From: Pseudomonadales bacterium | GTDB taxonomy: Bacteria > Pseudomonadota > Gammaproteobacteria > Pseudomonadales > JAUIET01 | Reading direction: 5' to 3' | Assembly: GCA_045106985.1 (NCBI GenBank) | Contig: JBGCFQ010000024.1 | Span: forward strand, 128,502-192,501 | DNA: 64,000 bases | In this document: one piece after another, positions 4,935 to 28,077 of the stretch | How the letters are laid out: the number at the start of each line of letters is the position of its first letter | Numbering within the stretch: position 1 is the first letter of the stretch | Program-made: the position numbers and the translations under genes | Notes under the pieces: model-generated | What the model saw: the letters and a program-made list of their open reading frames with translations, nothing else | Told to the model about the DNA's origin: nothing | The model's database searches: none

Positions 4935-4985
4935 GCGCTTAGAAATAGCGCGCTCAGTCGTTCCACTAAATAGTTAGTTATCATT

Positions 4986-5765: not shown

Positions 5766-5827
5766 GCAAATGGCCGTTCAATGGCTGAGGATATAAGTGA
5801 GTAAGTGTCGTGTTAAGTAGTAGCGGT

Positions 5828-7412: not shown

Positions 7413-7423
7413 TTGGAGTTTTT

Positions 7424-9964: not shown

Positions 9965-10188
9965 AAATGTTCGCGTTCATCCGGTCAATTCTTTAGCTGA
10001 CTCTCAGACTCTGCACCATGCCCTTGTAAAAGCGCCCTCACGGCTTTGTCGGGCTAATAGTGCTCAATGTAGCTGATTACTCTCAATTCAGATTACCGGC
10101 AACACGATCAATAGAAACTCAGCGCCTGATCACGTAAGATTAACGGATAGTTAAGTTACACCGATTTGACCAAAGCGGAGATTTTCAA

Positions 10189-12360: not shown

Positions 12361-12586
12361 TTGAGGCTGTCACGGCGGCTGCGAGGCTCAGAAGTTGCCT
12401 GGAGCATCTTTGAGTAACGTGGGATTCAAGATTCAGGTTTTGTTCATGATTTAGCGAGCACACTGTGGCATGCTAAACACTTCGGCCGGTTTAATGCCTA
12501 GTGCACTAATCCAGTCGATCGCCCGGTGCGTAGGAACAAATAATTAGAGTGGTTGTCTGATAGAAGACTACCGACACACAATCCTG

Positions 12587-14104
12587 ATGAATACGGTAAA
12601 AAATAAACGCTTCACGGTGCCAGCCACCGACATCGAATCGCAACAAAGAAGGCCGCGCCTGCGCGTCCATCCTACGTTGCTCGCCCCACTTTTAAGTCTG
12701 TTTCTGTTCGGTCAATTCAGCCAGGCCGAAACATCTGCTCAGCAGCCCTCTGACTCGGAATCCTCATCTACTTACGTAACCGCCCCGCAACCGGAGGTGA
12801 GTGACAGCGTCAGCGATGCCAATGACCCAAGGTTTGTAAGAGACCAGTACGTGCGAGAAGTAGAGTTGTTGCAGGCACAGTACGGAGCGTACAACAGCGA
12901 GCTGGCTGAGGCCCTACAAGGGCTGGGCGAAGCTCAACAACGGCTTGGCAAACATACTGACGCTATTGAGACACTCAAACAGAGTGCTCACATCACTCGA
13001 ATTAATGAGGGCCTCTTTGCTCCAGCGATCATGCCGATGCTCAACGCCATGGTTGAAAGCTATGCGCATTTGGGCGATTGGGAAGCTGTCGATGACCAGC
13101 ATCACTTCATGATGGAAATTAACGGAGCTAACTACGGCTGGAATGACGAGCGCATGTTGCCAATATTGGACAAGCTTACTCGCTGGCATATGTTCGCGTT
13201 TTTTGAGGCGGTCTCACCAGAGCCTTCGCATCATTTGCATATGGCGAGGTCGTTGTTTTCAGCAGCTTCAAGGGTAATAGAACTCAACTTTGGTCAATAC
13301 GATTTACGCCTGGCGAAGCAGCTACGCGGGCGCCGTATTGCTGATTATTACCTGGCGAGCATTATGGCCGACGAAGCCGAAAGCCAGTTGCGCCTTGAGC
13401 GCATGCAGAGTATCGGCAGAGACGAGAACTTCCGATTCGCTCAAGGAACAAGGACAATTTCACAAGGTTATTTGTCCGGGCTGCGTAGTTCGCGCCATGT
13501 AGTCGATATTTATGAGAACAATGATTCGGCCAGACCTGAAGAAGTGGCGGAAGCGATGGCTGAGCTAGGTGATTGGTATCTCCGCTTTAATAAACGTCAA
13601 TCGGCTATACGCACCTACCTTGACGCCTATAGCTTGTTGAGTGAAAACGCAGAAACAATCGCAATTCGAGATCGGATGTTTGGCCGACCCAAGGTGCTGG
13701 ATTTCGCTACCGATTACTCAGATTACCTAACACCCGCCGGAAAAAAACTATCAACAGGTTATGTTTTACTAGAGCTGGACTTAACCAAAGCCGGGTTGGT
13801 TAGCCGGGCGCAGTTTATTGAAGAGAAGCCGGCGCAGCCTTCAATGCGTCGCCGCGCGTTGCGCGAGCTTCGTAGCCGCCGTTTCAGGCCAAGGTTTGAG
13901 GACGGGGCACCAGTGCCTACGGCGGCGCTTAAGTATCGTTATCGCTACGAATACGCAGGACCGCCGATCTCCGCTTCGAGCAGCGAGCCAAAGCAGGCTA
14001 CTCAAGTAGATAAAGCTGAAGGGACAAAGCTCGAGAATAAAGCCGCTAGCTCAAAACCTTTAAAAGATCATTCGCCCGAAGGGGATTCCGATGCCACATT
14101 GTAA
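12587..14104 (+). CDS. signal-peptide TPR-like helical protein with TonB C-terminal-like domain
   Basis: N-terminal hydrophobic segment ending 'FSQA/ET', then TPR-like helices (for example 'ELAEALQGLGEAQQRLGKHTDAIETLKQS'). The C-terminal 'GYVLLELDLTKAGLVSRAQFIEE...RFRPRFEDGAPVP..LKYRYRYEY' resembles the TonB_C beta-alpha-beta pattern. Confidence 0.45.
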   Translation: MNTVKNKRFTVPATDIESQQRRPRLRVHPTLLAPLLSLFLFGQFSQAETSAQQPSDSESSSTYVTAPQPEVSDSVSDANDPRFVRDQYVREVELLQAQYGAYNSELAEALQGLGEAQQRLGKHTDAIETLKQSAHITRINEGLFAPAIMPMLNAMVESYAHLGDWEAVDDQHHFMMEINGANYGWNDERMLPILDKLTRWHMFAFFEAVSPEPSHHLHMARSLFSAASRVIELNFGQYDLRLAKQLRGRRIADYYLASIMADEAESQLRLERMQSIGRDENFRFAQGTRTISQGYLSGLRSSRHVVDIYENNDSARPEEVAEAMAELGDWYLRFNKRQSAIRTYLDAYSLLSENAETIAIRDRMFGRPKVLDFATDYSDYLTPAGKKLSTGYVLLELDLTKAGLVSRAQFIEEKPAQPSMRRRALRELRSRRFRPRFEDGAPVPTAALKYRYRYEYAGPPISASSSEPKQATQVDKAEGTKLENKAASSKPLKDHSPEGDSDATL

Positions 14105-15101
14105 AATTAAGGTTGTAGCAATATGTGCCTTGCTGGCTGTCTCGGCCTGTAAAGAAAAAGATGAGGAACAGGGCGGTGGTTCGGCAGTGGATCAGGGCAG
14201 TGTTCAAGAGAGTCATTCAAAGCCAGAAGCAAGCGCGTCAACAGCTGAACCTGGGTGGGAAGACGAGAGAGGTGAAGGGCTACCAGGCTTAGGCCAGGGC
14301 GGCAAAAGCGATACGGGCGCGGCGCAACGAGCATCAGATGAAAGAGAGATAGGCCATCGCCTGCCGCCTGCGGCTCCGCAAGCATCAGCCGGCGCTGGAA
14401 CTGGTAACGGACCATTCGGTGGTGCTACTGAAAGTGCCTCTATACCGCTGCCGACAGTGTTCAATGACGGCGACTACGACGTTGATGCTGGCTTGGAAGA
14501 CAGTGACTTTGATGTTGGCATTTCTGTGCCAGGCATTGGCTTACCTAGTATAGGTTTGCCCGGAATGGGTTTACCGGGTGGTGGAAGTTCAGGTGGCATG
14601 GGCGCGCCTAGCGCCGGTCTGCCTGGCGGAAGTGGTGGTGTTGGCGGTTTGGATGATGCTCTTGATGCATCGTTAGAAGACTTTGATGGCGTGGTTTTGG
14701 CAGGTAAAGACGGGGCCCGTGGAATGGAGAATTCAGGTGCTGGAAGTTCATCAAGCGGAGCCGCGAGTAGTGGCAAAGGCGGTGGAAAGGGCGGCGCGTC
14801 TGGTGCCGGTGGTGGCCAGGGAGGAGGGCAATCTCGAATTCCCCCACCACCCTCTGAGTCAGAATCTTCGAGCGGCGGGTCAGGCGGCGGTGGGGAGTCA
14901 GCCAAAGGCGCGAAAGGCGGCCCTAGGGGCTCCAACTCTAAAGGAAAGCAGCCAAACCCGGCTCCAGCCGACTTACAAGATGGCGACGACGATGATCTGA
15001 TTGCGCGCCAAATTAGAGAGGCCGCTGAAAACGAAGAGGATCCTGAATTGCAGGAAAAACTTTGGGACGAATATCGTAAGTACAAGAATGGTCAACGTTA
15101 G
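14091..15101 (+). CDS. lipoprotein with long Gly/Ser/Asp-rich low-complexity region
   Basis: Lipobox 'LLAVSAC'. Repeats 'GIGLPSIGLPGMGLPGGG' and 'GGGKGGASGAGGGQGGGQ' are followed by a conserved-looking acidic C-terminal helix. The start overlaps the upstream gene by 14 nt. Confidence 0.6.
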   Translation: MPHCKIKVVAICALLAVSACKEKDEEQGGGSAVDQGSVQESHSKPEASASTAEPGWEDERGEGLPGLGQGGKSDTGAAQRASDEREIGHRLPPAAPQASAGAGTGNGPFGGATESASIPLPTVFNDGDYDVDAGLEDSDFDVGISVPGIGLPSIGLPGMGLPGGGSSGGMGAPSAGLPGGSGGVGGLDDALDASLEDFDGVVLAGKDGARGMENSGAGSSSSGAASSGKGGGKGGASGAGGGQGGGQSRIPPPPSESESSSGGSGGGGESAKGAKGGPRGSNSKGKQPNPAPADLQDGDDDDLIARQIREAAENEEDPELQEKLWDEYRKYKNGQR

Positions 15102-15191
15102 GCGCCTGCTGGGCTTAACATTATTAACAATGGAAAATCCGTATTTGCCAAGATTTCCAGTTAGTTTCGCTAAAGACTTTGAGAATTACCC

Positions 15192-16403
15192 ATGAGTATT
15201 TCAGTTAAACGCCTGTTAAGCATCGTCGCACTGCTGCTTATGCAAGCTTGCTCTACAACAAACGTAAAAACATCAGATGTACATTTGCTGGATATGGCCC
15301 AGGAGGTGATTCCAGAACATTTACTGTTGGATGTTGGTATCAATATTTTTGATCCGGGTTTGGATTCCGCGGGAGATGATTCGAGCTTGTTTCCAGAAGT
15401 TCGTGAGGGCGAAGCCCGCTATCTGCCATTCAATTTAATGGAGACAATGCAAACGTCTGGTCATTGGGGCGCGGTCCGTGTGGTGCCATCAGAAATTGCA
15501 GCGGTTGATGTGCACGTTAATGGCAAAATACTGGAATCAGACGGTGAACGGTTATTTTTGCAACTGACCGTGTCAGACAGCACTGGTAACTTATGGTTTG
15601 ACCGTGAGTATAAGGAAGTCATTTCTGATTTCGTCTATAAGAAGCGACGGGCTGGCGAAGAGCCCTTTCAATCAATGTATAACCGCATTGCCAATGACAT
15701 CGCTAGCCACCAGGCGTCCTTAAACGTAGCGAGCAAAAACAACATACGAACGGTTGCTGAATTGCGCTTTGCCCAAGATTTTGCCCCTGACGCCTTTGGT
15801 GGTCACCTGAGTATTGATGAAGAGGGTATTCTCTCCATTAAACGCCTTCCTAGTGAAGTAGACCCAATGATGCAGCGGATTCGAAAGATCAGAGATCGCG
15901 ACTACTTGTTTGTTGATACTTTGCAGGATTACTACGGCGTTTTTCATCGGCAAATGGACGTACCTTATCTAGAATGGCGTGAGCGCAGCTACGACCATGC
16001 CGTCGCGATTAGAGAGTTGCGAAAGTCTCGCTCTATGCGCGGTATTGCAGGCGCTGCAGCAATAATAGCGGGGATCATGGCGGTTGGCGGCGGCAATGAC
16101 TATGCTCGAGCTGGTGGCGGAGTCGGCATCTGGGCTGGCAGTAGTCTGATTGGCAGCGCTTTACAAAAAGGCCAGGAATTAGGCCAGCATCAAGCTGACT
16201 TCAATGAAATTAGTGAATCGGTGATTACGGCGATTACTCCGCAGGTTATTGAGCTTGAGGATCAAACTATAACGCTGAGTGGTACTGTTAGTGATCAATA
16301 CGGGCAATGGCGAGAACTGCTGCGTGAGATCTATCGGCGAGAGAATGGGATTACCGCCGGCGATGCCAGCCTAAAATCTCCTGCTGCGAGTGATGAAGGG
16401 TAG
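15192..16403 (+). CDS. lipoprotein with C-terminal glycine-zipper segment
   Basis: Lipobox 'LLLMQAC'. A glycine-zipper-like stretch 'GIAGAAAIIAGIMAVGGGNDYARAGGGVGIWAGSSLIGSAL' lies at about nt 16041-16163. Confidence 0.55.
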   Translation: MSISVKRLLSIVALLLMQACSTTNVKTSDVHLLDMAQEVIPEHLLLDVGINIFDPGLDSAGDDSSLFPEVREGEARYLPFNLMETMQTSGHWGAVRVVPSEIAAVDVHVNGKILESDGERLFLQLTVSDSTGNLWFDREYKEVISDFVYKKRRAGEEPFQSMYNRIANDIASHQASLNVASKNNIRTVAELRFAQDFAPDAFGGHLSIDEEGILSIKRLPSEVDPMMQRIRKIRDRDYLFVDTLQDYYGVFHRQMDVPYLEWRERSYDHAVAIRELRKSRSMRGIAGAAAIIAGIMAVGGGNDYARAGGGVGIWAGSSLIGSALQKGQELGQHQADFNEISESVITAITPQVIELEDQTITLSGTVSDQYGQWRELLREIYRRENGITAGDASLKSPAASDEG

Positions 16404-16411
16404 TATCGTCG

Positions 16412-18007
16412 ATGAGCGAACCCGGAAAGCACACAGATGCAGGAAGAACTGCGGGTACCGCAACTATCGACAGAGGCATTGGTTCGAATATTGAAAACCA
16501 CACTGAGATAGCGCCCCTCAATCTGGATTTTTCTGAACTTGACGCAGTTGACGACATAGTTGCTGGCGCCACTTTAGAGGCGGGTTCACAGAGAGCGCCG
16601 AGGTGGTTACTTGCCACAATCATTGGCTTAGTCATTGCCGCCGTAACAGTCATATTTGTGTTGCCAACCGCTTTATCTCCAGCTGACCAACTCGCTGAAC
16701 AGGATGTGGAAGCTGAAGCCATCACGGCTGACGTAGAAAAGATTGATGAGGGCTCACCTTTTCAAGAAGCCAAACTCGCGCAGCAACGTAAAAACGCGCA
16801 AGACTCGCTGGAGCAATTACTTGAGAAGCAACTCTGGCTGGAAAAACGCAACGTTCAATTGTGGGCGGATAAAGAGTACCAACGCAGTTTCGAGTTGGCT
16901 GCCGAGGGCGATGAATATTATCGTAATCGACAGTTTGAAAAGGCCAATAATCTCTATTCAGAAGGTCTGGCAATTGTTACGAATCTTTTGGAAGGTGTGC
17001 CCGATCGCATCGATCGAAATCTTAAAGCCGGATTAGAAGCATTGCTAGTCAATGATGCTGAGAACGCAGAACAGGCTTTTGTTTTAATTCAGGCGATTCA
17101 ACCAGAGCATGACGGGGCTGCAGAAGGGTTGCAACGTCTTGCGGTATTGCCGTCAGTTAGCAAAGCATTGCAATTAGCTGACCGCTATCAAACCGAGCAG
17201 CAATTGCCTAAGGCCTTGGGCGAATTGCGCACAGTCGTTGAGCTCGACCCAGTGCGCGAAAGCCTGCTGACTGAACGCATAGCTCAGTTGGAACAGGCAA
17301 TTTTGGATCGAAACTTTGAAGAACAAATGTCTCAGGGCTATCAAAGCCTGGATCAGGGGAATCGATCGGCAGCAGCCCAATTTTTTACCCAAGCGAGCAA
17401 ACTAAAGTCTGAATCTACTGAGCCAAAAAAGGCTCTAAGAATGGTGCGCAATCAGCAAGCTCTTAGTCGTATGAGCGTGCATATAGATGAAGCCCGAGTT
17501 CTGGAACGAGAAGAACAATGGGCTGATGCGGTGAAGTCTTACGATGCTGCATTATCAATTGATGCGAACTTGAGTGATGCGGCGAACCGTCGTGCCAGAG
17601 CTGTTACTCGCATGAAGATGGATCAAGCTTTGGTAACACTTAATGATGATCCGTTGCGCCTTGCCGACAACACGATATATGCAAAAGCCGCGAAAATTCA
17701 TGCGGCGGGAACTCGAGTATCTGCTGCGGGACCGAGATTGACGCAACAACTAGAATTGCTGAATAAACAGTTGCAAGCATCTCGAATTTCACTTCCAGTG
17801 CTTATTGAATCTGACGGCTTTACTCAGGTGGCGCTTAGCCGCATTGCGCGTTTGGGTGTTCTTCAGCAGAAGAATTTATCATTGATACCTGGTCGATACG
17901 TAGTAACTGGGAGCCGAGACGGCTATCGCGATGTGCGTCGCGAATTTGAGGTGCCGCAGGGCGCTAGAAATGTACGAGTGGACATTCGTTGTGTCGAGCA
18001 AATCTGA
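16412..18007 (+). CDS. bitopic inner-membrane TPR-repeat protein with C-terminal PEGA-like beta domain
   Basis: A cytoplasmic N-tail is followed by a TM helix 'WLLATIIGLVIAAVTVIFVL' and a long TPR-like helical region. The C-terminus is 'LIPGRYVVTGSRDGYRDVRREFEVPQG' (PEGA-like). Confidence 0.5.
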   Translation: MSEPGKHTDAGRTAGTATIDRGIGSNIENHTEIAPLNLDFSELDAVDDIVAGATLEAGSQRAPRWLLATIIGLVIAAVTVIFVLPTALSPADQLAEQDVEAEAITADVEKIDEGSPFQEAKLAQQRKNAQDSLEQLLEKQLWLEKRNVQLWADKEYQRSFELAAEGDEYYRNRQFEKANNLYSEGLAIVTNLLEGVPDRIDRNLKAGLEALLVNDAENAEQAFVLIQAIQPEHDGAAEGLQRLAVLPSVSKALQLADRYQTEQQLPKALGELRTVVELDPVRESLLTERIAQLEQAILDRNFEEQMSQGYQSLDQGNRSAAAQFFTQASKLKSESTEPKKALRMVRNQQALSRMSVHIDEARVLEREEQWADAVKSYDAALSIDANLSDAANRRARAVTRMKMDQALVTLNDDPLRLADNTIYAKAAKIHAAGTRVSAAGPRLTQQLELLNKQLQASRISLPVLIESDGFTQVALSRIARLGVLQQKNLSLIPGRYVVTGSRDGYRDVRREFEVPQGARNVRVDIRCVEQI

Positions 18008-20093
18008 ACAAACCGAAACAGGCCTTAGCGCTGCGCCGAATGCAACGATTATTGAACCCGTTGCATTCGAGCCAATGGGTGAGCAGGAATTCGCCGCAGG
18101 GCCCGCAGCGTTATGGCCCAAGGCACTAATAGGACTATTTTTTCTGCTTACGGCCTTGGTGTTGTTTTTTCTGTTTACGGCCCGATCCGTATTGATTGAG
18201 CCACAATACAACGGTACTGCTGTCAACAATGCGAAATTTGAGTTAAGTGGCGGAATACATCTTTGGTTTGGCGGCCGTTTCTTGGTTCGCCCTGGCGCGT
18301 TTAGCGCATCAGTAAGTCACCCAGAATACAAAACCGCCAGTCTCGGTTTTCACGTTACTCAGGAGCAACAACAAAGCGTTGTTATCGAGCTGCAGCGAAA
18401 ACCCGATGTGTTTGATGTGAGTACTACACCGCCTGAGGCCGAGGTACTTGTTGATGGAGAGCTAGTAGGCACCACACCATTGATGGGCCTGTCGATAGAA
18501 GCCGGTTCCCGCTCTCTGAGCTTGCGCCACCCTCGCTATCTGCTGGTCGAAGAAGAGCTTCAGGTTGAAGGAGGAGGTAATACTGTCGCTCGAAGTTTTA
18601 ACCTTGAGCCCGCTTGGGCCGAGGTAACTGTTGATACCTTGCCGCAAGGGGCGACAGTGTTTTCTGATGAACGCGAGATTGGTAAAACGCCGCTCACGGC
18701 AGAAGTTTTTCAAGGGCTTCGGCAACTAAGCTTCCACCTTAGTAAATTCAAAACCTCAAGCCAGGAACTGAATGTGATGGCCGGCGACGCTCTTCAGCTG
18801 GAAACAGTCGTGTTAGATCCTGCTGATGCAATGCTGGCATTGGAAAGTACGCCGCTCGACGCCGGCGTATTGGTTAATGGCGTTTACAGTGGCCAAACAC
18901 CCGTAACCGTCGCGCTGAAAGCCGATGAGAATTCTGTAGTGGAGCTGTTTAAACAAGGATATAAAAAGCAAAGTAGAGCGCTAAGCTACTCCGCCGGAGA
19001 GCAGCAGGCTTTGAACATTGCTTTATCCCCGGCTCTGGGTCTAGTGACACTGAACGTCACGCCGGTAGATTCGAGTGTTAGCATAAATGGCCGTTCGCTA
19101 AGCACAAAGCAAACCCTGTCTAAGCGACTCAGTTTACCTTCTGTACCGCAAACTTTCAGGGTAACGCGCAAAGGTTACCTACCTTTTGAAAAAACTATCA
19201 CGCCGAGGCCTGGATTTAAACAAACCTTAAACGTCACTTTGTTAACACCTGCAGCGGCTAAGGCAGCGAAGATCAAATCAGTTTTCCGAAGTGCGGGCGG
19301 CCAGCAAATGCGCTTAATTAAACCCGGCCGAATAACTATGGGTGCTTCTCGTCGCGAAGCCGGCCGTAGAGCGAATGAAAATCTCAGACCGGTTGTATTG
19401 CAAAGACCATTTTATATTTCCGCCACTGAAGTGACCAATGGCGAATACCGAAAGTTTGATTTCAAACATTCCTCCAAGCGTGTGGAAGACAAAAGCCTAA
19501 ATGCTGACGCTCAGCCAGTGGTAAGAGTAGCTTGGGTAGATGCCGCGCAGTATTGCAATTGGTTGAGTGAGCAAGAAGGCTTGGCTCTGGTGTATGAGTT
19601 TAAGGAAGGAAAACTGACAAATGTAGACCAACAGGCATCGGGTTATCGTTTACCAACTGAGGCCGAGTGGTCGTACAGTGCTAGAAAACTGGGCAAAGAA
19701 ATGCTGAAATTTCCCTGGGGCCAGGAGTGGCCAGTGCCGCCTGGTAGCGGAAACTTCGCTGACATCAAAGCGAGCTACATTTTGGGGCGAACACTTCCTC
19801 ATTATGAAGATGGATATACAGCAAGTGCTCCCGTTGGAAAATTTACGCCTAATCAGTATGAGCTTTATGACATGGGAGGAAATGTCGCTGAGTGGGTACA
19901 CGACTTTTATGCTCCAGGTCAGCCTCCAGGTTCGAAAGTGGATCCTTTCGGCCCCAAGGAGAGTAATTACCACGTCGTTCGCGGATCCTCATGGCGGCAC
20001 GGTTCACTGGTAGAGCTAAGGCTTTCTTATAGGGATTATGCAGATCGAGGACGAGATGATCTTGGTTTCAGAGTCGCTCGTTATCTGGATTAA
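17970..20093 (+). CDS. membrane-anchored protein with about 5 PEGA repeats and a C-terminal FGE-sulfatase (SUMF1-fold) domain
   Basis: TM helix 'ALIGLFFLLTALVLFFLF'. Repeats include 'VSTTPPEAEVLVDGELVGTTPL', 'VDTLPQGATVFSDEREIGKTPL', 'LESTPLDAGVLVNGVYSGQTPV' and 'LNVTPVDSSVSINGRSL'. FGE-fold motifs are 'YRLPTEAEW', 'GNVAEWV', 'VVRGSSW' and 'LGFRVAR'. The start is uncertain (ATG 17970 overlaps the upstream gene). Confidence 0.75.
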   Translation: MYEWTFVVSSKSEQTETGLSAAPNATIIEPVAFEPMGEQEFAAGPAALWPKALIGLFFLLTALVLFFLFTARSVLIEPQYNGTAVNNAKFELSGGIHLWFGGRFLVRPGAFSASVSHPEYKTASLGFHVTQEQQQSVVIELQRKPDVFDVSTTPPEAEVLVDGELVGTTPLMGLSIEAGSRSLSLRHPRYLLVEEELQVEGGGNTVARSFNLEPAWAEVTVDTLPQGATVFSDEREIGKTPLTAEVFQGLRQLSFHLSKFKTSSQELNVMAGDALQLETVVLDPADAMLALESTPLDAGVLVNGVYSGQTPVTVALKADENSVVELFKQGYKKQSRALSYSAGEQQALNIALSPALGLVTLNVTPVDSSVSINGRSLSTKQTLSKRLSLPSVPQTFRVTRKGYLPFEKTITPRPGFKQTLNVTLLTPAAAKAAKIKSVFRSAGGQQMRLIKPGRITMGASRREAGRRANENLRPVVLQRPFYISATEVTNGEYRKFDFKHSSKRVEDKSLNADAQPVVRVAWVDAAQYCNWLSEQEGLALVYEFKEGKLTNVDQQASGYRLPTEAEWSYSARKLGKEMLKFPWGQEWPVPPGSGNFADIKASYILGRTLPHYEDGYTASAPVGKFTPNQYELYDMGGNVAEWVHDFYAPGQPPGSKVDPFGPKESNYHVVRGSSWRHGSLVELRLSYRDYADRGRDDLGFRVARYLD

Positions 20094-20459: not shown

Positions 20460-20510
20460 AATCGGAACACAGCTTAAAAGTATCAATCACGTGAGCATTT
20501 GGAAGAGAAC

Positions 20511-21308
20511 ATGAAAAGTAACTTGAGTCGCGAATTCATGTACCAGCTAATTGCGTTATTACTAGCAATTATCGTTGTACATACCGTGTACGTAGGGCTG
20601 ATAAGGCCTAATGCCGCAGAGCTTCTCGCTCACCAAGCGCAGCTACAAGCAGACGGAGGAGCGTATGTTCCTTCAAGATCGATCTATGTGGTACTGAAAG
20701 ACTTTGAACAGGAAACCTGCTTTATATTGGCTATCTGGGCGATTGCTATCATGGGCTTTAAAGCACGCAGTATCACCGGGCAGCGCCTTATGCTGGACCG
20801 AAGTTTGCTAAATATTAGCCCTGGCACAAGCATGCTTCCGGAAGACGCCCGTGATCATTCGCGTGCCTTGCAGGCACTTCCGCAGGAAGAAAAACAGAGC
20901 CTTTTACCCAGAGCACTGCTGATAGGTCTGCAGCGCTTCGGCTCTACGCGAAGCATTCAGGACGTAGCGACGGCTATCAAAGAGGTGTGTGAGAGTGAAG
21001 CCGACAGATTGGACTCCGAACTTGCGATGGTGCGCTACATAGCGTGGGCGATCCCTTCCATAGGTTTTATTGGTACTGTGCGTGGTATTGGCGCCGCGCT
21101 GGGTCAAGCGCACCAAGCGGTGGAAGGGGATATCTCGGGAGTAACCGCTAGTTTGGGCGTGGCATTCAACTCTACGTTTATCGCTCTAGTCGTTAGTATC
21201 CTAATAATGTTCTTAATGCATCAGCTGCAATTGCTGCAAGAACGCTTGGTGTTAGACAGTCAGCAGTATTGCGATACAAACCTAATGCCGCATTTACAAG
21301 TGCACTAG
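20511..21308 (+). CDS. MotA/TolQ/ExbB proton-channel family protein
   Basis: 'WAIPSIGFIGTVRGIGAALG' and 'LGVAFNSTFIALVVSILIMFLMH' match the conserved TM2/TM3 signature of MotA_ExbB channels. The ATG at 20511 is preceded by GGAAGAG. Confidence 0.8.
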   Translation: MKSNLSREFMYQLIALLLAIIVVHTVYVGLIRPNAAELLAHQAQLQADGGAYVPSRSIYVVLKDFEQETCFILAIWAIAIMGFKARSITGQRLMLDRSLLNISPGTSMLPEDARDHSRALQALPQEEKQSLLPRALLIGLQRFGSTRSIQDVATAIKEVCESEADRLDSELAMVRYIAWAIPSIGFIGTVRGIGAALGQAHQAVEGDISGVTASLGVAFNSTFIALVVSILIMFLMHQLQLLQERLVLDSQQYCDTNLMPHLQVH

Positions 21309-21328: not shown

Positions 21329-22690
21329 ATGTATGACGCTGTAGTTGAACTGAACGATATAGATCTACCCATATGGCAAAGCGGTGACTCTTCTACATGC
21401 CCGGCGTTTGCCCTGCGTGGCGAAACAGGTCTTGTTTTTGGCCATGAGGCTCGTGACCAGGCACGGTTGCATCCTCTCAGGATTAATAGCCGGTTTATGC
21501 AGCAGCTTAGTTTGGTTGAAACGCCGGAGCTTAAACCTCATGCGCGTCATCATGCCGACTTAGCGTACCGATTTTTGCAGTTCGCTCATAGGGGCGCATC
21601 GGCGCCAGAACGTTGCGTTTTTGTTGTGCCGCCTAGCTACACTCAAGATCATATGTCTGTACTGCTTGGCGTTGTTAAACAATGCTCTTTTGACGCGGTT
21701 GGCTTGTTAGATCAAACAGTAGCAGTCGCCAGCCAAGAAGCTGCGCAGAGCAACGGTGTTTTCTGTGATCTACAGCTTCATCAGTTGGTGCTGGGCGCTT
21801 ACCACGTGGAAAATAATGACGTTGTTCGCGGTGCAACACAGAGCGTAGATCAGTTCGGTCTGCAGCCGCTCTATGAGCGATGGGTTCGATTGATAGCTCA
21901 AGCCTTTGTTAAGCAGTGTCGCTTTGATCCACTGCACGACGCAGCGATTGAGCAACAGCTGTGGTTACAACTGCCTGCTATTTTGCAAGAGCAAGCAAAT
22001 GATGAGATGTTCAAGTTTTCCTTGTTGAATAAATATTTGATCGAAATACCGCGTTCCGTAATGCTTGGGCCAGTGACGGAGTTGTTTGCACAATTGCAAC
22101 AAAGGTTGGTTTCATTCGATGGCGATAACGCAGAGTTACTATGCAGTGCTCGCTTAGCCAGCTTGCCTGGATTTCTGACGCTCGACAGTCGACTAAAAAG
22201 CGTTGCTCCAGATAGTGTTGCTAAAGCAGTAAGTAACTTTCAAAGCAAAATTTGCTCGAATACGGCTAATCTTCCGTTCGTTTGTAGATTGCCGATGGGT
22301 ACGCCGAATAACGCTGCTAATATTGCCCCAACTGCAGCCGTCAATCCGGACCCAAGTTCTAGTTCTAACGTAGTGAGGTCGGAAACTTTCGCGATTGACT
22401 ATTCAATAACGCACTTTGTATTGGACGGTGTCGCGCACCCGCTAAAGGAAAATCCATTGTTGCTGAATGGTTTGGGTGCAGCAATTGTTTGGTCGCATCG
22501 CGAAGGTAGCGTAGCGACAGCAATGGTTTCTCTTGAGGAGGGTCGTTGGAGTGTTAAGCGTCTAGATAACGCAGAGCTTTGGCTCAATGGCGAAATACTA
22601 TTGACAGAGTGCGAGGCTGTTCAAAAAGGAGACCGACTAAGTCTTGCAGAAGATGGAGCGGAGTTGAGCTTTATTAGACTCTTAGCGTGA
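21329..22690 (+). CDS. cytoplasmic Hsp70/actin-fold-like protein with degenerate nucleotide-binding loops and FHA-like C-terminus
   Basis: By-eye alignment to DnaK: 'DIDLPIWQS' vs GIDLGTTNS, 'GETGLVFGHEARDQARLHP' vs [17 protein letters not shown], 'VFVVPPSYTQDH' vs [12 protein letters not shown], and 'FCDLQLHQ' vs VYDLGGGT. The C-terminus 'WSVKRLDNAELWLNGEIL...GDRLSL...LSFIRL' is FHA-like. No TM helix or signal peptide. Confidence 0.45.
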   Translation: MYDAVVELNDIDLPIWQSGDSSTCPAFALRGETGLVFGHEARDQARLHPLRINSRFMQQLSLVETPELKPHARHHADLAYRFLQFAHRGASAPERCVFVVPPSYTQDHMSVLLGVVKQCSFDAVGLLDQTVAVASQEAAQSNGVFCDLQLHQLVLGAYHVENNDVVRGATQSVDQFGLQPLYERWVRLIAQAFVKQCRFDPLHDAAIEQQLWLQLPAILQEQANDEMFKFSLLNKYLIEIPRSVMLGPVTELFAQLQQRLVSFDGDNAELLCSARLASLPGFLTLDSRLKSVAPDSVAKAVSNFQSKICSNTANLPFVCRLPMGTPNNAANIAPTAAVNPDPSSSSNVVRSETFAIDYSITHFVLDGVAHPLKENPLLLNGLGAAIVWSHREGSVATAMVSLEEGRWSVKRLDNAELWLNGEILLTECEAVQKGDRLSLAEDGAELSFIRLLA

Positions 22691-22715: not shown

Positions 22716-22740
22716 CATCCTAAATTTGCTTTTTAGGATG
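22716..22740 (+). repeat. perfect 9-bp inverted repeat (stem-loop) in the largest internal gap of the operon
   Basis: CATCCTAAA-tttgctt-TTTAGGATG. No T-tract follows it. Confidence 0.6.
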
Positions 22741-22801: not shown

Positions 22802-23887
22802 ATGAGACGAAAAAGAAACGCGACTACCTTTAACCTTTCCTTTCTCGATGTAATGTCGTGCGGGTTTGGTGCGGTCGTGTTGATTTTTTTGATTGTGGAG
22901 CACTCTAGCAGCACTCAGTCCAACGCTGCCAACACTATGGAGCTTGCTGAAGTAAATATGTTGGAGCGCGATATAGAACTGGAAGAACGGCTATCGGCTG
23001 AAGCCCGCAATGCGCTCCGCTTGGTTGATCTCGATATTGTTGAGGTCAGTGGCGCTTCGAAGCGTTTGGTTGACGAGCTGGAAAATCTTAAGGAAGAGCT
23101 AGCGGAGGAAGATTCTGACAGCCTTGCTCGTTTGGAGCATGTCAATCAGCTCAAGACTGAAATAAAAAACCTTGAGAAAGAAATAGAACGCTTACGCTCT
23201 TCGGATGAGGTAGGACAGGGGCGCCGCTCTCGGTTTGTTCGTGGAGAAGGTGAACGCCAGTATTTAACGGGATTGAGGGTTGGAGGACGCCGGATAATGG
23301 TCTTGCTTGATACTTCGTCCAGCATGTTAGACCGTACCGTTGTAAATATATTGAGACTCAGAAATCTGTCAGACGCTAGAAAACGGCAGGCTAAAAAGTG
23401 GCAGTCTGTTGTAGGCACGATGGATTGGTTGACCGCGCAATTCCCGCAGAGCAGTCAGTTTCAAATCTATTCTTTTAATACTGAAGCCAAACCAGTGATC
23501 GCAGACACGGATGGAGAATGGCTATCAGTGAGCGACACCGACATGCTTGAAGAAGCGATGGCGGAAGTCCGTCGCTTAGTGCCCGACGGCGGCACAAGCC
23601 TCGCCAACGCCTTTGAAGCGGTAGAGGGATTCGTGAGTCTGCCCGATAATATTATTTTAATCACTGATGGTCTTCCAACACAAGACAGCAGCCCCGGCAG
23701 CGGGAAGGTAAACAGTGAGAAAAGAATGCGTTTTTTCAGTAAAGCATTGAAACACCTGCCTGGCGGAATTCCCATTAACGTTATTCTCTCACCGATGGAA
23801 GGTGATCCAGCGGCTGCGGCTGCATTTTGGAATCTTGCCGTTGTTACCGGTGGCTCGTTCCTGAGTCCCTCTAAGGATTGGCCATGA
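22802..23887 (+). CDS. ExbD/TolR-like TM anchor - coiled coil - periplasmic vWA domain protein (paralog 1)
   Basis: N-terminus 'MRRKRNATTFNLSFLDVMSCGFGAVVLIFLIV' resembles the ExbD/TolR helix with its essential Asp (nt 22847-22849). A heptad-rich E/L/K segment follows. vWA MIDAS elements are 'VLLDTSSSM', 'GGTSL' and 'ILITDG'. Confidence 0.7.
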   Translation: MRRKRNATTFNLSFLDVMSCGFGAVVLIFLIVEHSSSTQSNAANTMELAEVNMLERDIELEERLSAEARNALRLVDLDIVEVSGASKRLVDELENLKEELAEEDSDSLARLEHVNQLKTEIKNLEKEIERLRSSDEVGQGRRSRFVRGEGERQYLTGLRVGGRRIMVLLDTSSSMLDRTVVNILRLRNLSDARKRQAKKWQSVVGTMDWLTAQFPQSSQFQIYSFNTEAKPVIADTDGEWLSVSDTDMLEEAMAEVRRLVPDGGTSLANAFEAVEGFVSLPDNIILITDGLPTQDSSPGSGKVNSEKRMRFFSKALKHLPGGIPINVILSPMEGDPAAAAAFWNLAVVTGGSFLSPSKDWP

Positions 23888-24876
23888 GATTCAGAAAGCG
23901 CGGCACCGAAGACATGAACGTCGCCTTTCTTGATGTGATTTGTTGTGGCTTCGGCGCCATCATACTATTGCTGTTGATCACCAAGATCATGGATCCAGCT
24001 GCGTTGGAAGAATCCCCACAGGACCAAGAAGCCGCCATCGCGAATTTACAAGAACAACTCTTTGAAATTCGGGGTGATGCCCGCGTATTGAATCGAGATT
24101 TAAACGCCAAGCGCGAGCAGCTCTCAGAGATTAAAGATTATGTCGCACGACTTCAGGGCGAACTCAGAGTATTGAAGGGCGAATTTGATGCAACCGATGA
24201 TGACTCGGCCACCAATACTTTGTTAGCGGGCGAATTAGCAGGGGCGCGCCAGACCTTAACCGAGGAAATGCAACGTTTGCTGGGTGAATCGTCACAGCGC
24301 TCTAATGATTTGATTGGTGGTATACCTGTTGATAGCGAATATCTTATTTTTATTATTGATACTTCAGGATCTATGGTGCAATCAGCGTGGTCGCGTTTGC
24401 AGCGCGAAATTATTGCAACCTTAGATGTTTATCCAGAAGTGAAAGGCATTCAGATAATGAATGATATGGGGAATTATATGTTTACCCGGCATCGCGAAAA
24501 GTGGATGACTGATGAGCCTCACCGACGTCGCGCCATCGTTCGTTCGCTGCAGAACTGGACGCCCTTTAGTAATAGTAGCCCGGTAGAAGGGGTGGAAGCC
24601 GCCATACGGACTTTTTACGAACCCGGTAAAAAGATCAGCTTGTTTGTATACGGCGATGATTTTTCCAGTGGCTCTATTCAAAGAGTATTGCTAACCATTG
24701 ACCGAATAAACCTGGAGGTCAAAGACGGGCAGCGATTAGTTCGAATTCACGCAGTTGGTTTTCCTCATTTGATCTCCGGGCGGGGGATGAAAAGCTCTGC
24801 TTCGCGTTTTGCTGCGTTGATGCGTGAAATGAGCTACCGTAATGGCGGTAGTTTTGTTGGACTGACACCGGAATAA
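23884..24876 (+). CDS. ExbD/TolR-like TM anchor - coiled coil - periplasmic vWA domain protein (paralog 2)
   Basis: N-terminus 'MRFRKRGTEDMNVAFLDVICCGFGAIILLLLI' (Asp at nt 23932-23934), then a coiled coil and the vWA motif 'FIIDTSGSM'. ATGA start/stop overlap with paralog 1. Confidence 0.7.
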   Translation: MRFRKRGTEDMNVAFLDVICCGFGAIILLLLITKIMDPAALEESPQDQEAAIANLQEQLFEIRGDARVLNRDLNAKREQLSEIKDYVARLQGELRVLKGEFDATDDDSATNTLLAGELAGARQTLTEEMQRLLGESSQRSNDLIGGIPVDSEYLIFIIDTSGSMVQSAWSRLQREIIATLDVYPEVKGIQIMNDMGNYMFTRHREKWMTDEPHRRRAIVRSLQNWTPFSNSSPVEGVEAAIRTFYEPGKKISLFVYGDDFSSGSIQRVLLTIDRINLEVKDGQRLVRIHAVGFPHLISGRGMKSSASRFAALMREMSYRNGGSFVGLTPE

Positions 24877-24880
24877 AAAC

Positions 24881-25936
24881 ATGAATGGAGTGTCTAAGTT
24901 GTTAATGAATAGAGTACGGGGGTTTCAAGTGCGGCTTGGCTTGCTGGTTGTGGCGACATTGGCTCTGGCGGCTTGCGCCACGAGCACTGAAGTCGACGTG
25001 AAAGGCACACAGGAGTTTCCAGTGCCATTGGTTGTTAGAGCCGATTTGCACATGGGCATCTATGTTCCAGAAGAGTTCGAATCTTATGTGTACGAAGACT
25101 ACGAAAAGGTAAAGAAAAAGAAGTCCAGAAGTGAAATAAGAGCGGCTAAGAAAATAGCCAAGAAAAAGGCGGAAGATCAAAAAAAGGCTGAGCAAAAGAA
25201 AGCCGAAGAAAAGAACGCCGAGCAAAAAGAGACAGAGCAGGACAAGGTAAATAAGAAGGCAGAACCCTCTAACGACGATGACTCTGATGCAGAGCAGGAA
25301 AAAGCAGCACCGGTATTATCCCTGGCTTCCGCTGATTCCGACGCCCAATTGCAAACTGACGCCGAGGAACAAGCAGCAACAGGAAAAAACACAGCTAATG
25401 CCAACGAAAGCACTGGCTCCGGCGCTGGCAGCTCGGTTGCGTCATCCGCCTCTGCAGCGGCGAAGGATGAATTGCGCTTAAAGTTTCGTATCAGCCTGGG
25501 TGAAGCTCAGGCGAAAATGGTACGCACAGTCTTTCCTGGCGTGTTTCGCCAAACGACGATGCTAGAGTCGCTGGCGCCGGAAAATTTGCCCGACGACATC
25601 GACTTTTACCTAGTGCCGAGTATTACCAAGGTTCAGTACACTACGCCGAAAACCACAAGGTTAAACGTCTATGAGATTTGGTTGCAGTACACGTTTACGA
25701 TTTATGATCGTCGTGGTGATGTGATTACGCGCTGGCGTGTGCCGAGTTATGGGAAAACACCAACGGCCTTCATGAAGTCTAAAGAAAATGCGTTGCAGAC
25801 GGCAACACAGATGGCACTTCGCGATTGCGGGGCGGCGTTTTCTACAGGGTTTAGAACGCAACCGGCGATAGCTCGCTGGCTGCAAGCGCGAGAAAAAAAG
25901 CTCGAGATTCAAACAACTCCTAAGGTAGCAATATGA
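24881..25936 (+). CDS. lipoprotein with Lys/Glu/Ala-rich disordered linker
   Basis: Lipobox 'LALAAC'. The region 'KKKKSRSEIRAAKKIAKKKAEDQKKAEQKKAEEKNAEQKETEQDK' is followed by a folded-looking C-terminal domain. Confidence 0.55.
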   Translation: MNGVSKLLMNRVRGFQVRLGLLVVATLALAACATSTEVDVKGTQEFPVPLVVRADLHMGIYVPEEFESYVYEDYEKVKKKKSRSEIRAAKKIAKKKAEDQKKAEQKKAEEKNAEQKETEQDKVNKKAEPSNDDDSDAEQEKAAPVLSLASADSDAQLQTDAEEQAATGKNTANANESTGSGAGSSVASSASAAAKDELRLKFRISLGEAQAKMVRTVFPGVFRQTTMLESLAPENLPDDIDFYLVPSITKVQYTTPKTTRLNVYEIWLQYTFTIYDRRGDVITRWRVPSYGKTPTAFMKSKENALQTATQMALRDCGAAFSTGFRTQPAIARWLQAREKKLEIQTTPKVAI

Positions 25937-26595
25937 AGCCTACTTACTTAGTAAAGAAACTCATGCTGGTAGTGCTATTGGTGCTCTCAACGGCCTGTAC
26001 CACCACAACGATTGACGAGTACCGACAAGAAGGCGTTGACCTGGTGGCTGGACGCTCTGTTGTCGTGTTGGGTCGCCGGCATACCAGTGGCGCTGTTACC
26101 GAGCCTTTTGTTACTTCCTGCATCTCATCGCAATTAGGCCGTGGAAAGAATCCCATCAGTGTGATTGGCGAGCAAGATTTTCAAGACAGATTGTACCCCT
26201 GGTTTGAGCCTAGAACCGCGCCTTTGCAACTCTCGCGATTGAAAACAGTATTAGCTAAGCCAATCATTGCCAATGAGATTAAGAATATGGGCCTGCAGTA
26301 CATTGTTTGGGTTGACGGCAGCACGCAACGAGGAGCAAGCGCCGGTGGAATGTCTTGTTCTATAGGCGTTGGTGGTGCAGGGTGTCTTGGCTTTGGCACT
26401 TGGGAAGATGATGGTGAGTATGAGCTTTCCGTTTGGGATATTTCGCAAGACAAACCGGTTGCTGAAATGAGCGCCAGCGCGGCGGGCGTTTCTTATATGC
26501 CGGCGGTTGTAGTACCGTTGCCACTAATCGCTCGAGTGAAAACCTCGGTCTGTAACGGCTTGGCACAACAGATCAAGCAGTTGTTTCCTGAATAG
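25933..26595 (+). CDS. lipoprotein, unknown function
   Basis: Lipobox 'LVLSTAC'. ATGA overlap with the upstream gene. 220 aa. Confidence 0.55.
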   Translation: MKPTYLVKKLMLVVLLVLSTACTTTTIDEYRQEGVDLVAGRSVVVLGRRHTSGAVTEPFVTSCISSQLGRGKNPISVIGEQDFQDRLYPWFEPRTAPLQLSRLKTVLAKPIIANEIKNMGLQYIVWVDGSTQRGASAGGMSCSIGVGGAGCLGFGTWEDDGEYELSVWDISQDKPVAEMSASAAGVSYMPAVVVPLPLIARVKTSVCNGLAQQIKQLFPE

Positions 26596-26604
26596 GAGCG
26601 TAGT

Positions 26605-28077
26605 ATGACTTCCCCAACGTCTTTGATTCATTTCTTACTTATAGCCCTCTTGGCTTGCGGAACCCTTTGGTCCGATGACGCTCTGGCGATGTCGGAGAAA
26701 AAAGCGATAAAAATTGGTAAGAAAGCGTATGAGCAAATCATCAACAAAAACCCGCCATACCCCGACGAAGAATTGCAAGCTTATGTTCGAGACATCGGAA
26801 ACAGACTGGCCTCTCACAGTGATTTAGCCGACAAACCCTGGCGCTTCACGGTGCTTGATGACCCCGCCATAAACGCGTTCGTTACACCTGGTTATTTCGT
26901 TTACGTGAATACCGGACTATTGACCTACATCCAATCCGAAGCGCAGCTAGCGGGCGTTATAGGTCATGAAATTGGTCACCTTGTGCGTAAGCACCCTGAC
27001 AGGCAGTCGACAGCCAATGGTTGGACCAAAGCGCTATCAACGATTGCTACGGTTTTGGTCGGTGTAACAACCGGCAGTGGTCAAGCTGCGAGCGGCGCGA
27101 ATCAGTTGGGCTCCTTAGCTGGCACCGCACTCGTTCGAGGTTACGGTCGAGATATGGAGTTGGAGGCTGACGAAGAAGGAGCGAAATACTTATTGGCCGC
27201 GGGTTATCCTCCGGAGGCCATGGTGGATGTGATCGCGGTGCTTAAGGATCAGGAGCGCTTTGCGCGGTTAAAGGCAAAAGAGAAGGGCGCTAGACCCATC
27301 GCCTACCATGGCGTGTTTTCCACTCATCCTCGCAACGACAAGCGATTACAAAATGCCGTTCGAGCTGTGGGCAGTCTGGACGAAGGCGTAGTTGAGCGCG
27401 GCCTGGACGGTGATTTTGAAGAGCATATGGAGGGTTTTAAATTCCTCAACACGCCACTGATATTCCGAACGACTGGCAGTCGCTATCTCAATCGGCCAAT
27501 GGATTTCACCCTGGCGTTTCCAAGCGGTTGGTCGATTAAGTCTAAGGGCTCTGTAATCCAGGCGAAAGGTGAAGGTGGCAAGGCGGTTATCCAAATGCGG
27601 ATCAAAAAGCTGGAGGAAGAAATAACGCCAGAAAAGTATCTTCGCGAAGTTCGGAATTTTAAAACGCTTGAAAATGGCGAGTCTCTGGATAATGAACATA
27701 TTAAGGGTTATTCGGCTATTGTTCCTGCAAACTCAAAATATCCGGCCCGAAGAATCGCTGTCATATTCCACAAGAAAAGGGCCTTCTTGTTCGTTGCTCA
27801 GCTCACCGACCCCAGTATCCCCGAAGCCTTGGCCAGCTTTTATGACACACTTTTTATGGCGAGTTTCTGGAGTTTCAGACCTCTAAACGAATACGATCGG
27901 TCAATTGCCTTATCGCGGCACATTAGTTGGTATCAAGCAGAGCAGGGCGTAAGCTTTGAAGCGCTCGCTGCAGCAAGCCCGATTAAGGAGTTTGCTGAAG
28001 AAGAGCTTCGCTTGATGAATGGCTATTACCCTTATGGCGAGCCTAAAGCAGGAGAATGGCTAAAAATTGTTCGCTAA
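26605..28077 (+). CDS. M48 family zinc metallopeptidase (probable lipoprotein)
   Basis: 'GHEIGHLVRKH' HExxH at nt 26965-26979, a downstream 'ELEADEEGAKYLLAAGYPPEAM', and a possible lipobox 'ALLAC'. AGGAG lies upstream of the ATG. Confidence 0.8.
   Translation: MTSPTSLIHFLLIALLACGTLWSDDALAMSEKKAIKIGKKAYEQIINKNPPYPDEELQAYVRDIGNRLASHSDLADKPWRFTVLDDPAINAFVTPGYFVYVNTGLLTYIQSEAQLAGVIGHEIGHLVRKHPDRQSTANGWTKALSTIATVLVGVTTGSGQAASGANQLGSLAGTALVRGYGRDMELEADEEGAKYLLAAGYPPEAMVDVIAVLKDQERFARLKAKEKGARPIAYHGVFSTHPRNDKRLQNAVRAVGSLDEGVVERGLDGDFEEHMEGFKFLNTPLIFRTTGSRYLNRPMDFTLAFPSGWSIKSKGSVIQAKGEGGKAVIQMRIKKLEEEITPEKYLREVRNFKTLENGESLDNEHIKGYSAIVPANSKYPARRIAVIFHKKRAFLFVAQLTDPSIPEALASFYDTLFMASFWSFRPLNEYDRSIALSRHISWYQAEQGVSFEALAAASPIKEFAEEELRLMNGYYPYGEPKAGEWLKIVR

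Follow-up and report, generated by a model that had tools for sequence, protein, structure and literature searches.

What does a soluble protein with the fold of a chaperone ATPase do in an operon of envelope proteins built around a proton channel? The question is posed by g08, a gene on a 64,000-nucleotide stretch of a Pseudomonadales bacterium genome (GTDB lineage JAUIET01; GenBank assembly GCA_045106985.1, contig JBGCFQ010000024.1, positions 128,502 to 192,501 of the forward strand), hereafter called the window. We identify in its product the fold of an Hsp70 nucleotide-binding domain (NBD) followed by an FHA fold, both without the residues that bind their canonical ligands, and we find the gene within a conserved cluster that carries a MotA-like motor gene. 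We propose, with moderate confidence, that g08 acts as a non-catalytic, two-headed cytoplasmic adaptor or docking hub of the motor machine. The parts of g08 lie in the window as follows.

21329–22690, forward strand: g08, a 453-residue soluble cytoplasmic protein with an Hsp70-NBD-fold domain, a disordered linker and an FHA-fold domain
21329–22303, forward strand: residues 1–325, Hsp70 NBD fold with a reduced subdomain IB (Foldseek, global hhalign)
21347–21364, forward strand: ELNDID, equivalent of the Hsp70 phosphate-1 loop (DnaK D8-L-G-T-T-N; hhalign register, strand 4–7 of the model)
21542–21568, forward strand: ARHHADLAY, family signature that opens the helix before the 'VFVVP' strand (conservation)
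21767–21784, forward strand: DLQLHQ, equivalent of the Hsp70 phosphate-2 loop (DnaK D194-L-G-G-G-T; hhalign)
21920–21955, forward strand: RFDPLHDAAIEQ, second family signature (RFDPLHxAxxEQ; conservation)
22271–22294, forward strand: LPFVCRLP (consensus LxFITRLP), hydrophobic segment located where Hsp70 has its interdomain linker (conservation, model)
22304–22402, forward strand: variable disordered inter-domain linker, about residues 326–358 (pLDDT, alignment)
22403–22687, forward strand: residues 359–453, FHA-fold beta-sandwich without phosphothreonine-binding residues (model, Foldseek, profile, motif comparison)

Two folds without their canonical ligand sites

The g08 reading frame is intact, running from an ATG at 21329 through 453 codons to a TGA stop at 22688–22690. 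A longer reading from a TTG at 21269 would overlap the 3' end of the upstream gene, and we place the start at the ATG because all homologues begin about five residues before ELND. The protein carries no signal peptide and no transmembrane (TM) segment, with a maximum 19-residue Kyte-Doolittle mean of 1.46; it is therefore a soluble cytoplasmic protein, as a preliminary description of the locus had held. All of the peptide strings quoted in that description are present in the translation. An identical sequence, from a marine Pseudomonadales metagenome-assembled genome, has already been deposited under the annotation 'hypothetical protein'. Within the 111-nucleotide gap between g08 and the following gene, g09, lies a perfect 9-bp AT-rich hairpin (CATCCTAAA...TTTAGGATG, 22716–22740) that is not followed by a T-run and could be an mRNA processing or stability element.

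Our AlphaFold2 models are of monomers, with full-length g08 modelled from the family alignment and residues 355–453 modelled separately. The full-length model has a mean predicted local distance difference test (pLDDT) score of 91. When it is compared with the PDB by Foldseek, the top 50 listed matches all belong to the Hsp70 family (E 6e-16 to 4e-14), including DnaK, Hsc70, Hsp72, BiP, mortalin, Ssb and Ssz1, with TM-scores, normalised on the target, of up to 0.72. Global hhalign of the g08 family profile against four Hsp70 NBDs is collinear, pairing residues 1–311 with DnaK 1–384 (probability 89.6%, E 2e-7); of the four sequences in the Hsp70 profile, DnaK is the one confirmed against the PDB. 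Because structural matches and collinear global alignment agree, we assign the N-terminal ~325 residues, as modelled, to an Hsp70-type NBD that has diverged and whose subdomain IB is shortened. At the level of the predicted structure, the resemblance to Hsp70 is decisive.

The Hsp70/actin-type N-terminus put forward in the preliminary description is thus borne out by the model and by Foldseek, and is weak at the sequence level. Neither whole g08 nor residues 1–325 match any Pfam or NCBIfam profile even at E≤10, so that a search with the HSP70 model (PF00012) fails for g08, and the same model is touched by one of 57 family members (E 0.17). PADLOC returns nothing for g08, and phmmer against the PDB yields chance matches only (actin-capping protein and TerC; E ~0.4). 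The 57-sequence family profile finds faint matches to Ssb1 and HSPA6 over residues 13–53 (E 0.3–0.8). Local hhalign of the family profile against DnaK alone was too weak (E 0.02–0.04, probability 1–3%, residues 19–52), and the four-sequence profile in global mode was required; on the DnaK side, the local match covers residues 32–65, the G-x-x-A-[RK]-x-Q-A-x-x-x-P stretch that had been spotted by eye.

The former nucleotide site has been rebuilt. The residue equivalences that follow rest on an alignment of ~12% identity to DnaK, whose register may be off by one or two positions. Opposite the phosphate-1 loop, g08 reads E7-L-N-D-I-D, retaining the acidic residue and losing G-T-T; the pattern [ED]x[N..][DE] occurs in 179 of 204 family members and DxG[TS][TS] in none. 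The preliminary description had read this loop five residues downstream, as D12-L-P-I-W, and both hhalign and strand 4–7 of the model instead place E7-L-N-D-I opposite D8-L-G-T-T. Its reading of the phosphate-2 loop holds: hhalign aligns D147-L-Q-L-H-Q with DnaK D194-L-G-G-G-T, the Asp being retained and the Gly-rich turn replaced, and the canonical DxGG[GS] is found in none of the 204 representatives. The adenosine-binding G-G (DnaK G341-G342) becomes S-A. DnaK E171 aligns to the variable Q129, with the conserved D128 one position before it (register uncertain), and DnaK K70 has no conserved basic counterpart in the family, R55 being nearby (register again uncertain).

The replacements are themselves conserved: E7, N9, D10 and D147 are kept in at least 90% of the family, and L150 and H151 are invariant. 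Because these replacement motifs are family-conserved, we regard the cleft as remodelled under selection; the earlier term 'eroded' is right in that both loops are non-canonical and wrong in implying decay. Given these substitutions, canonical ATP binding by g08 is very unlikely, and we infer that the protein does not bind nucleotide, in keeping with the pseudo-ATPase scaffold that had been suggested for it. A different small ligand or a peptide could occupy the cleft.

The same conservation bears on the view that g08 is a switch or an enzyme, in which the remodelled cleft (E7, N9, D10, D147, H151 and R73/H74/D77) would bind a nucleotide, metal or phospho-ligand non-canonically, and the assembly or activity of the motor would depend on this ligand, much as the conformations of PilM, FtsA and Hsp70 depend on ATP. 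The former active-site loops rank among the most conserved positions of the family, acidic residues persist where DnaK has D8 and D194, and the NBD architecture, cleft included, appears preserved in the model. Against this stand the replacement, in 204 of 204 members, of the Gly and Thr residues whose backbone amides bind phosphate in both loops and of the adenosine Gly-Gly, the variability at the E171 position, the want of a clear K70 equivalent, and a cluster in which Pfam detects no exchange factor or J-domain gene. We consider a ligand-operated g08 unlikely.

Outside the cleft, the family carries further signatures. In ARHHADLAY, A76, D77 and L78 are invariant and R73, H74 and A79 are at least 90% conserved; in RFDPLHDAAIEQ, R198, P201, A205, E208 and Q209 are invariant. 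The latter resembles DnaK 253-RNDPLAMQRL of subdomain IIB by eye only, in a register that hhalign does not reproduce. LPFVCRLP, in which F317, L321 and P322 are at least 90% conserved and residues 320–322 form a short strand in the model, may be the positional counterpart of the DnaK linker VLLLDVTP.

Taken together, g08 shares with the Hsp70 NBD (PF00012) a four-subdomain actin-like fold that is collinear over the whole domain, local echoes (G-x-x-A-[RK]-x-Q-A-x-x-x-P and [VI]P-x-x-[FY]) and a hydrophobic linker-like segment after the last helix. It differs in its short subdomain IB, in the replacement of phosphate-1 GTT, phosphate-2 GGG-T and the adenosine GG, and in having no substrate-binding domain or lid, the C-terminus being instead a linker and a 95-residue FHA-fold domain. 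Ssz1, an atypical Hsp70 that does not hydrolyse ATP, and Hsp110 keep these loops and bind ATP; the g08 family does not keep them. Because four defining features are missing from it, g08 is not an Hsp70 member in the functional sense.

The linker that follows is predicted to be disordered, with pLDDT below 50 for residues 330–356, and its length and sequence vary in the family alignment. Beyond it, the separately modelled residues 355–453 reach a pLDDT of 94, and the top 50 Foldseek matches of this tail in the PDB are all FHA domains (E 3e-3 to 2e-2, TM ~0.6, probability ~1.0), among them those of Rv1747, OdhI/GarA, DgcB, KIF1A/C, APLF and Ki-67. A profile of the family C-terminus matches the EssC FHA domain in the PDB (E 1.8e-5), then KIF13B, Rad53, YukB and Ki-67 (down to 1e-2). 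The FHA-like tail first noticed from its spacing of residues is therefore confirmed as a fold.

With the Pfam FHA model (PF00498) the outcome is divided. g08 itself gives no match at E≤10, and 3 of 57 aligned family members match at E≤1; two homologues, P0060 and P0153, pass the gathering score (39.9 and 45.9 bits, respectively, against a cutoff of 20.7). A phmmer search of the P0060 tail against the PDB gave nothing at E≤0.01. Because these two homologues pass Pfam FHA and the family profile matches FHA domains in the PDB, FHA homology of g08 is supported transitively, and g08 is a member of the FHA superfamily only in this structural, transitive sense. P0153 also shows a weak match to Yop-YscD_cpl, the model of the cytoplasmic domain of type III secretion YscD.

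P0060 retains GISRQHC...DHSRHGTWVN and provides the bridge to g08 in the family alignment. Against it, g08 has N-G in place of G-R, T in place of the SxxH histidine and A in place of the NG asparagine; the Ser of SxxH, present in g08, is not conserved across the family. The canonical signature GISRxHC...DHSxHG[TS] is kept by four of 204 members (P0060, P0153, P0190 and P0194), a subclade that may represent an ancestral, possibly phospho-dependent state.

These results speak to the suggestion that g08 reads phosphothreonine on a motor component, phosphorylated by a Ser/Thr kinase encoded elsewhere. The domain does descend from a true FHA domain, as the few members that pass Pfam and keep the signature attest, and a conserved motif in the cytoplasmic tail of the neighbouring protein g04 (described below) usually ends in Ser or Thr. 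Yet g08 has none of the pocket Arg, His and Asn, the signature is missing in 200 of 204 members, and in the clade of the window the g04 motif ends in Ser, a residue that FHA domains disfavour. In agreement with the preliminary description, Pfam finds no kinase or phosphatase among the operon genes, and a crude scan for Hanks and PP2C motifs, covering the window and ±10 kb around 83 related loci, is likewise negative. Because the phosphothreonine-binding residues are absent and no kinase or phosphatase is linked, phosphothreonine reading, which had been offered as one option for g08, is quite improbable, and judging by these substitutions the tail most likely functions independently of phosphothreonine, in the manner of the EssC and YscD FHA domains.

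The g08 family and its motor cluster

An initial search gave 63 homologues of g08, and an exhaustive hidden Markov model search gave 2259 clusters at 50% identity (E≤1e-3), or 1204 at E≤1e-30; nearly all members are 420–480 residues long. Scanning with ARHHADLAY as the seed pattern places relatives in at least 459 species genomes, mostly from Pseudomonadales (in the GTDB sense), Cellvibrionales, Porticoccaceae and Alteromonadaceae. Cultured taxa are among them (Microbulbifer okhotskensis, Porticoccus litoralis and Parahaliea mediterranea); RefSeq annotates the P. mediterranea homologue WP_206559068.1 as 'hypothetical', UniRef as 'FHA domain-containing'.

The cluster around g08 comprises the following genes, with counts taken from 82 related loci.

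12587–16403, forward strand: g01–g03, an exported TPR/TonB_C-like protein, a Gly-rich lipoprotein and a 403-residue lipoprotein (Pfam, synteny)
16412–18007, forward strand: g04, an N-in bitopic TPR protein (TPR_2; 69/82 loci)
17931–20093, forward strand: g05, N-in bitopic, combining four PEGA domains with a PorK/GldK-like FGE-sulfatase domain (Pfam; 76/82 loci)
20499–21308, forward strand: g07, a MotA/ExbB/TolQ-like proton-channel protein (PF01618, E 2.3e-15)
22802–23887, forward strand: g09, with a transpore helix (LSFLDVMSCGFGA, conserved Asp), a coiled coil and a vWA domain (VWA_2 and VWA_3 matches, N-terminal alignment)
23878–24876, forward strand: g10, a paralogous second transpore-helix/coiled-coil/vWA-like protein (VAFLDVICCGFGA; synteny 80/82, N-terminal alignment)
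24881–28077, forward strand: g11–g13, two lipoproteins and an M48 peptidase (Peptidase_M48, synteny)

The order is that of a TPR/TonB_C-like gene, two lipoproteins, the bitopic TPR protein, the bitopic PEGA/FGE protein, a small exported protein, the motor gene, g08, the vWA pair, two lipoproteins and often an M48 peptidase. g08 encodes the only soluble cytoplasmic protein of this 12–13-gene cluster, which is retained on every contig of sufficient length, even where g08 has diverged to 27% identity. The motor gene g07 ends 20 nucleotides upstream of g08; a MotA-like gene is present in 82 of 82 loci and lies directly upstream of g08 in all but three rearranged ones. With the first vWA gene in 81 loci and the second in 80, the placement of g08 in an envelope and motor operon, as originally described, is well founded. 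In the three rearranged loci (L041, L066 and L080; about 7900–16000) the order is PEGA/FGE, g08, two lipoproteins, MotA-like, vWA1 and vWA2, so that g08 stays directly behind the PEGA/FGE gene and the motor gene has moved away. Synteny of g01–g03 extends to 54–64 of the 82 loci, limited by contig ends, and downstream g11, g12 and g13 are found in 70, 66 and 43 loci.

Could g08 be functionally unrelated to the motor and merely travel with the operon? It is among the least conserved proteins of the cluster. It nevertheless accompanies the cluster in all 82 loci across Pseudomonadales, Cellvibrionales, Alteromonadaceae, Lysobacterales and others, with gaps of 10–25 nucleotides to neighbouring genes, and stays there even where the gene order has been shuffled. 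We regard a passenger role as very improbable.

The vWA pair shares an N-terminal architecture of a short basic tail followed by an extremely conserved helix, [LI]SFLD[VI][MI][SC]CGFGA, whose Asp is invariant in all loci; g10 homologues are named 'VWA domain-containing protein' in RefSeq. Searches of the cluster proteins against Pfam and NCBIfam gave no match to ExbD, TolR, MotB or OmpA-like models. A TolQ-like pentamer with paired transpore-helix vWA proteins (the TPH-vWA motor) has been proposed from genomics and AlphaFold3 models (Mol Biol Evol 2025, PMC12204202). The cluster of the window matches that proposal exactly, having a MotA/TolQ-like gene without tolR, exbD or motB, then two heterologous vWA proteins, each with the conserved Asp in its N-terminal helix; in the clusters that we examined, g08 is encoded between the tolQ-like gene and the vWA pair. 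The accessible part of that article's text and supplements does not mention an Hsp70-like or FHA component.

Two other kinds of system were considered and set aside. A Zorya-like defence system is indicated by no more than a marginal ZorA match of g07 (E 0.004); PADLOC has nothing for g08 and, for the other four cluster proteins scanned, nothing beyond marginal (E>0.002) coiled-coil-type matches of g09. The conflict systems described by Aravind and colleagues, which combine vWA, Hsp70 and FGE-sulfatase domains (PMC7159879), have cores of MoxR or GTPase type that the cluster of the window lacks, and that article reports no connection with MotA.

The best NCBIfam match of g05 is the type IX secretion system (T9SS) ring lipoprotein PorK/GldK (TIGR03525, E 9e-38), at 130.6 bits against a cutoff of 350. 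The occurrence of a PorK/GldK-like protein next to a MotA-like motor in Gammaproteobacteria is a possible architectural parallel to PorLM-PorKN. As in T9SS and gliding motility, a 5:2-type motor (PorL-PorM there) is encoded with an envelope protein of FGE-sulfatase fold. The differences are that g05 is an N-in bitopic protein with PEGA domains and not a lipoprotein, that its score is far below the family cutoff, and that the g08 cluster has no PorM, PorN or secretion-substrate genes. T9SS is not known to have an Hsp70/FHA component.

Several further features of the window deserve mention. The exported TPR protein g01 (12587–14104, forward strand) shows a weak match to the TonB C-terminal domain (E 0.0012) and may be a TonB-like periplasmic link of the machine. 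The Gly/Ser-rich lipoprotein (14091–15101, forward strand) contains ~200 low-complexity residues, and its segment aligned across loci, apparently the C-terminal end, is unusually conserved at 56–81% identity. The M48 metallopeptidase (26605–28077, forward strand), found at the end of the cluster in 43 of 82 related loci, about half, may be BepA-like by size and domain. Further upstream, at 4260–9964 (forward strand), lies a full coenzyme F420 biosynthesis set in what is apparently a marine gammaproteobacterial metagenome-assembled genome: an F420-dependent NADP oxidoreductase-like gene, cofE, cofD, cofC and an 846-residue fused radical-SAM CofG/CofH.

Candidate partners and the proposed role of g08

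Two candidate ligands of g08 lie in the cytoplasmic N-termini of g04 and g05. These tails are ~65 residues long and otherwise unconserved, and each carries one short motif that is constant in its spacing to the TM helix as well as conserved in sequence.

16505–16534, forward strand: EIAPLNLDFS, cytoplasmic N-tail motif of g04 and candidate g08 ligand, ~25 residues before the TM helix
18048–18074, forward strand: IIEPVAFEP, cytoplasmic N-tail motif of g05 and candidate g08 ligand, ~19 residues before the TM helix

The g05 pattern [IVLM]x[PA]xx[FYL]xP (IxPxxFxP) occurs in 61 of 62 unique tails and the g04 pattern [IVL]xPxx[LIVF]x[LFIVM], usually followed by S or T, in 49 of 59, compared with ~0.8 after shuffling in each case, a control that is generous because the patterns were written after seeing the data. 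The conservation of both motifs is unmistakable. Two other kinds of tail were dismissed as ligands: the basic N-tails of the vWA pair, which look like ordinary positive-inside signals and show no mirror-tree signal, and that of g01, which has a signal peptide and no conserved tail.

Two weak and independent hints tie g04 and g05 to g08. The first is a mirror-tree analysis over 16 non-redundant loci, in which the mean divergence of the remaining cluster proteins is controlled for: the partial correlations of g08 are 0.56 with g05, 0.37 with g04 and 0.33 with g07, and approximately zero with the other five cluster proteins tested, the vWA pair included. The second is the adjacency of g08 and g05 in the rearranged loci. 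Our evidence favours the cytoplasmic tails of g04 and g05 as partners of g08 at least as strongly as it does the MotA-like protein.

There is precedent for actin-like proteins in such a position. PilM binds the N-terminal tail of PilN ('INLLP'), FtsA binds the tail of FtsN, and the cytoplasmic domain of GspL in type II secretion has an actin-like fold without nucleotide binding. Like these, g08 is a cytoplasmic protein with the fold common to sugar kinases, Hsp70 and actin that stands beside bitopic partners, here g04 and g05 with their conserved N-tail motifs, and by analogy we propose that it binds such tails. It differs in being closest to Hsp70 and not to PilM, FtsA or MreB among the top 50 listed Foldseek matches, and in the added FHA domain, which among these proteins is unique to the g08 family; the Pfam models of PilM, FtsA and MreB match neither g08 nor its aligned family members.

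The FHA domain has counterparts in other trans-envelope machines. EssC/YukB of type VII secretion, YscD/EscD of type III secretion and GltG of the Agl-Glt gliding machinery each present an FHA beta-sandwich on the cytoplasmic side, carried by a membrane-anchored protein in each of them and by the tail of a soluble Hsp70-fold protein in g08. For the FHA domain of Myxococcus GltG, the predicted docking site is the TolQ-like AglR pentamer, on its cytoplasmic face (PMC11761067).

We therefore favour, as stated above, an adaptor or docking role. At the centre of the machine would be a proton-driven MotA/TolQ-like pentamer, with the two transpore-helix vWA proteins forming its inner 'plug' as a heterodimer. 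g08 descends from an Hsp70 NBD fused to an FHA domain, both domains having lost their canonical ligand sites (the phosphate-loop Gly and Thr and the adenosine GG in one, the phosphothreonine-binding Arg, His and Asn in the other). The Hsp70-fold and FHA-fold heads, held on a flexible tether of ~35 residues, would join cytoplasmic parts of the membrane components, the candidates being the g05 tail IxPxxFxP, the g04 tail IxPxxhxh[S/T] and/or the cytoplasmic loop of the MotA-like pentamer. Such binding may position the membrane components around the motor.

Several considerations weigh against this proposal. Every physical contact in it, including that of g08 with the cytoplasmic face of the MotA-like protein, is one that we infer. 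The conserved E7, D10, D147 and H151 in the former cleft are equally compatible with a bound small ligand or metal. The tail motifs were defined post hoc, and the mirror-tree correlations rest on 16 loci, the pairs of which are non-independent. g08 is also among the fastest-evolving cluster proteins, at 27–53% identity compared with 54–89% for the MotA-like protein, and this rate fits a peripheral adaptor but would equally fit a dispensable accessory.

Fast evolution relative to the motor core is also what a transient assembly chaperone might show. In such a role g08, as an Hsp70-derived holdase, would capture the tail motifs of the bitopic proteins during insertion or assembly and then leave. 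Its Hsp70 ancestry suits this, and so do the candidate ligands, which are short, hydrophobic, beta-prone peptides. The domain that has been retained, however, is the NBD and not the substrate-binding domain of Hsp70, there is no sign of an ATP cycle for release, and the strict 1:1 position in the operon is typical of structural subunits. We think a chaperone function rather unlikely.

If the docking role is extended, g08 would couple the motor, as its cytoplasmic element, in what would be a new class of proton-driven 5:2 rotary machine. A nucleotide-free hub derived from Hsp70 would grip the tails of the PorK-like and TPR proteins and touch the MotA-like pentamer, and the motor, as it rotates or cycles between conformations, would pass its motion on to a ring of envelope proteins or have it gated for them. 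In this g08 would be a counterpart of FliG for MotAB, made instead of a chaperone ATPase fold joined to an FHA fold. We put this forward as a speculative possibility, to which we give little weight beside the docking role.

Meaning for the family and its motor

In the literature we found no description of a loop-less Hsp70 NBD fused to a degenerate FHA domain and dedicated to a 5:2 motor cluster. Proton-driven 5:2 motors (MotAB, ExbBD, TolQR, PorLM, AglRQS and ZorAB) are a current focus of research, and their coupling to cargo is an open question. The TPH-vWA motor has so far been proposed only computationally, in 2025, and g08 is a dedicated soluble protein that accompanies the motor in the lineage examined (at least 459 species genomes), which includes culturable Microbulbifer, Porticoccus and Parahaliea. 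A large family absent from Pfam and NCBIfam is thereby made structurally interpretable, and two conserved cytoplasmic tail motifs become concrete, testable candidate ligands for it. Collectively, g08 illustrates cleanly how the fold of a chaperone ATPase can be recruited for what is likely a non-catalytic scaffold.

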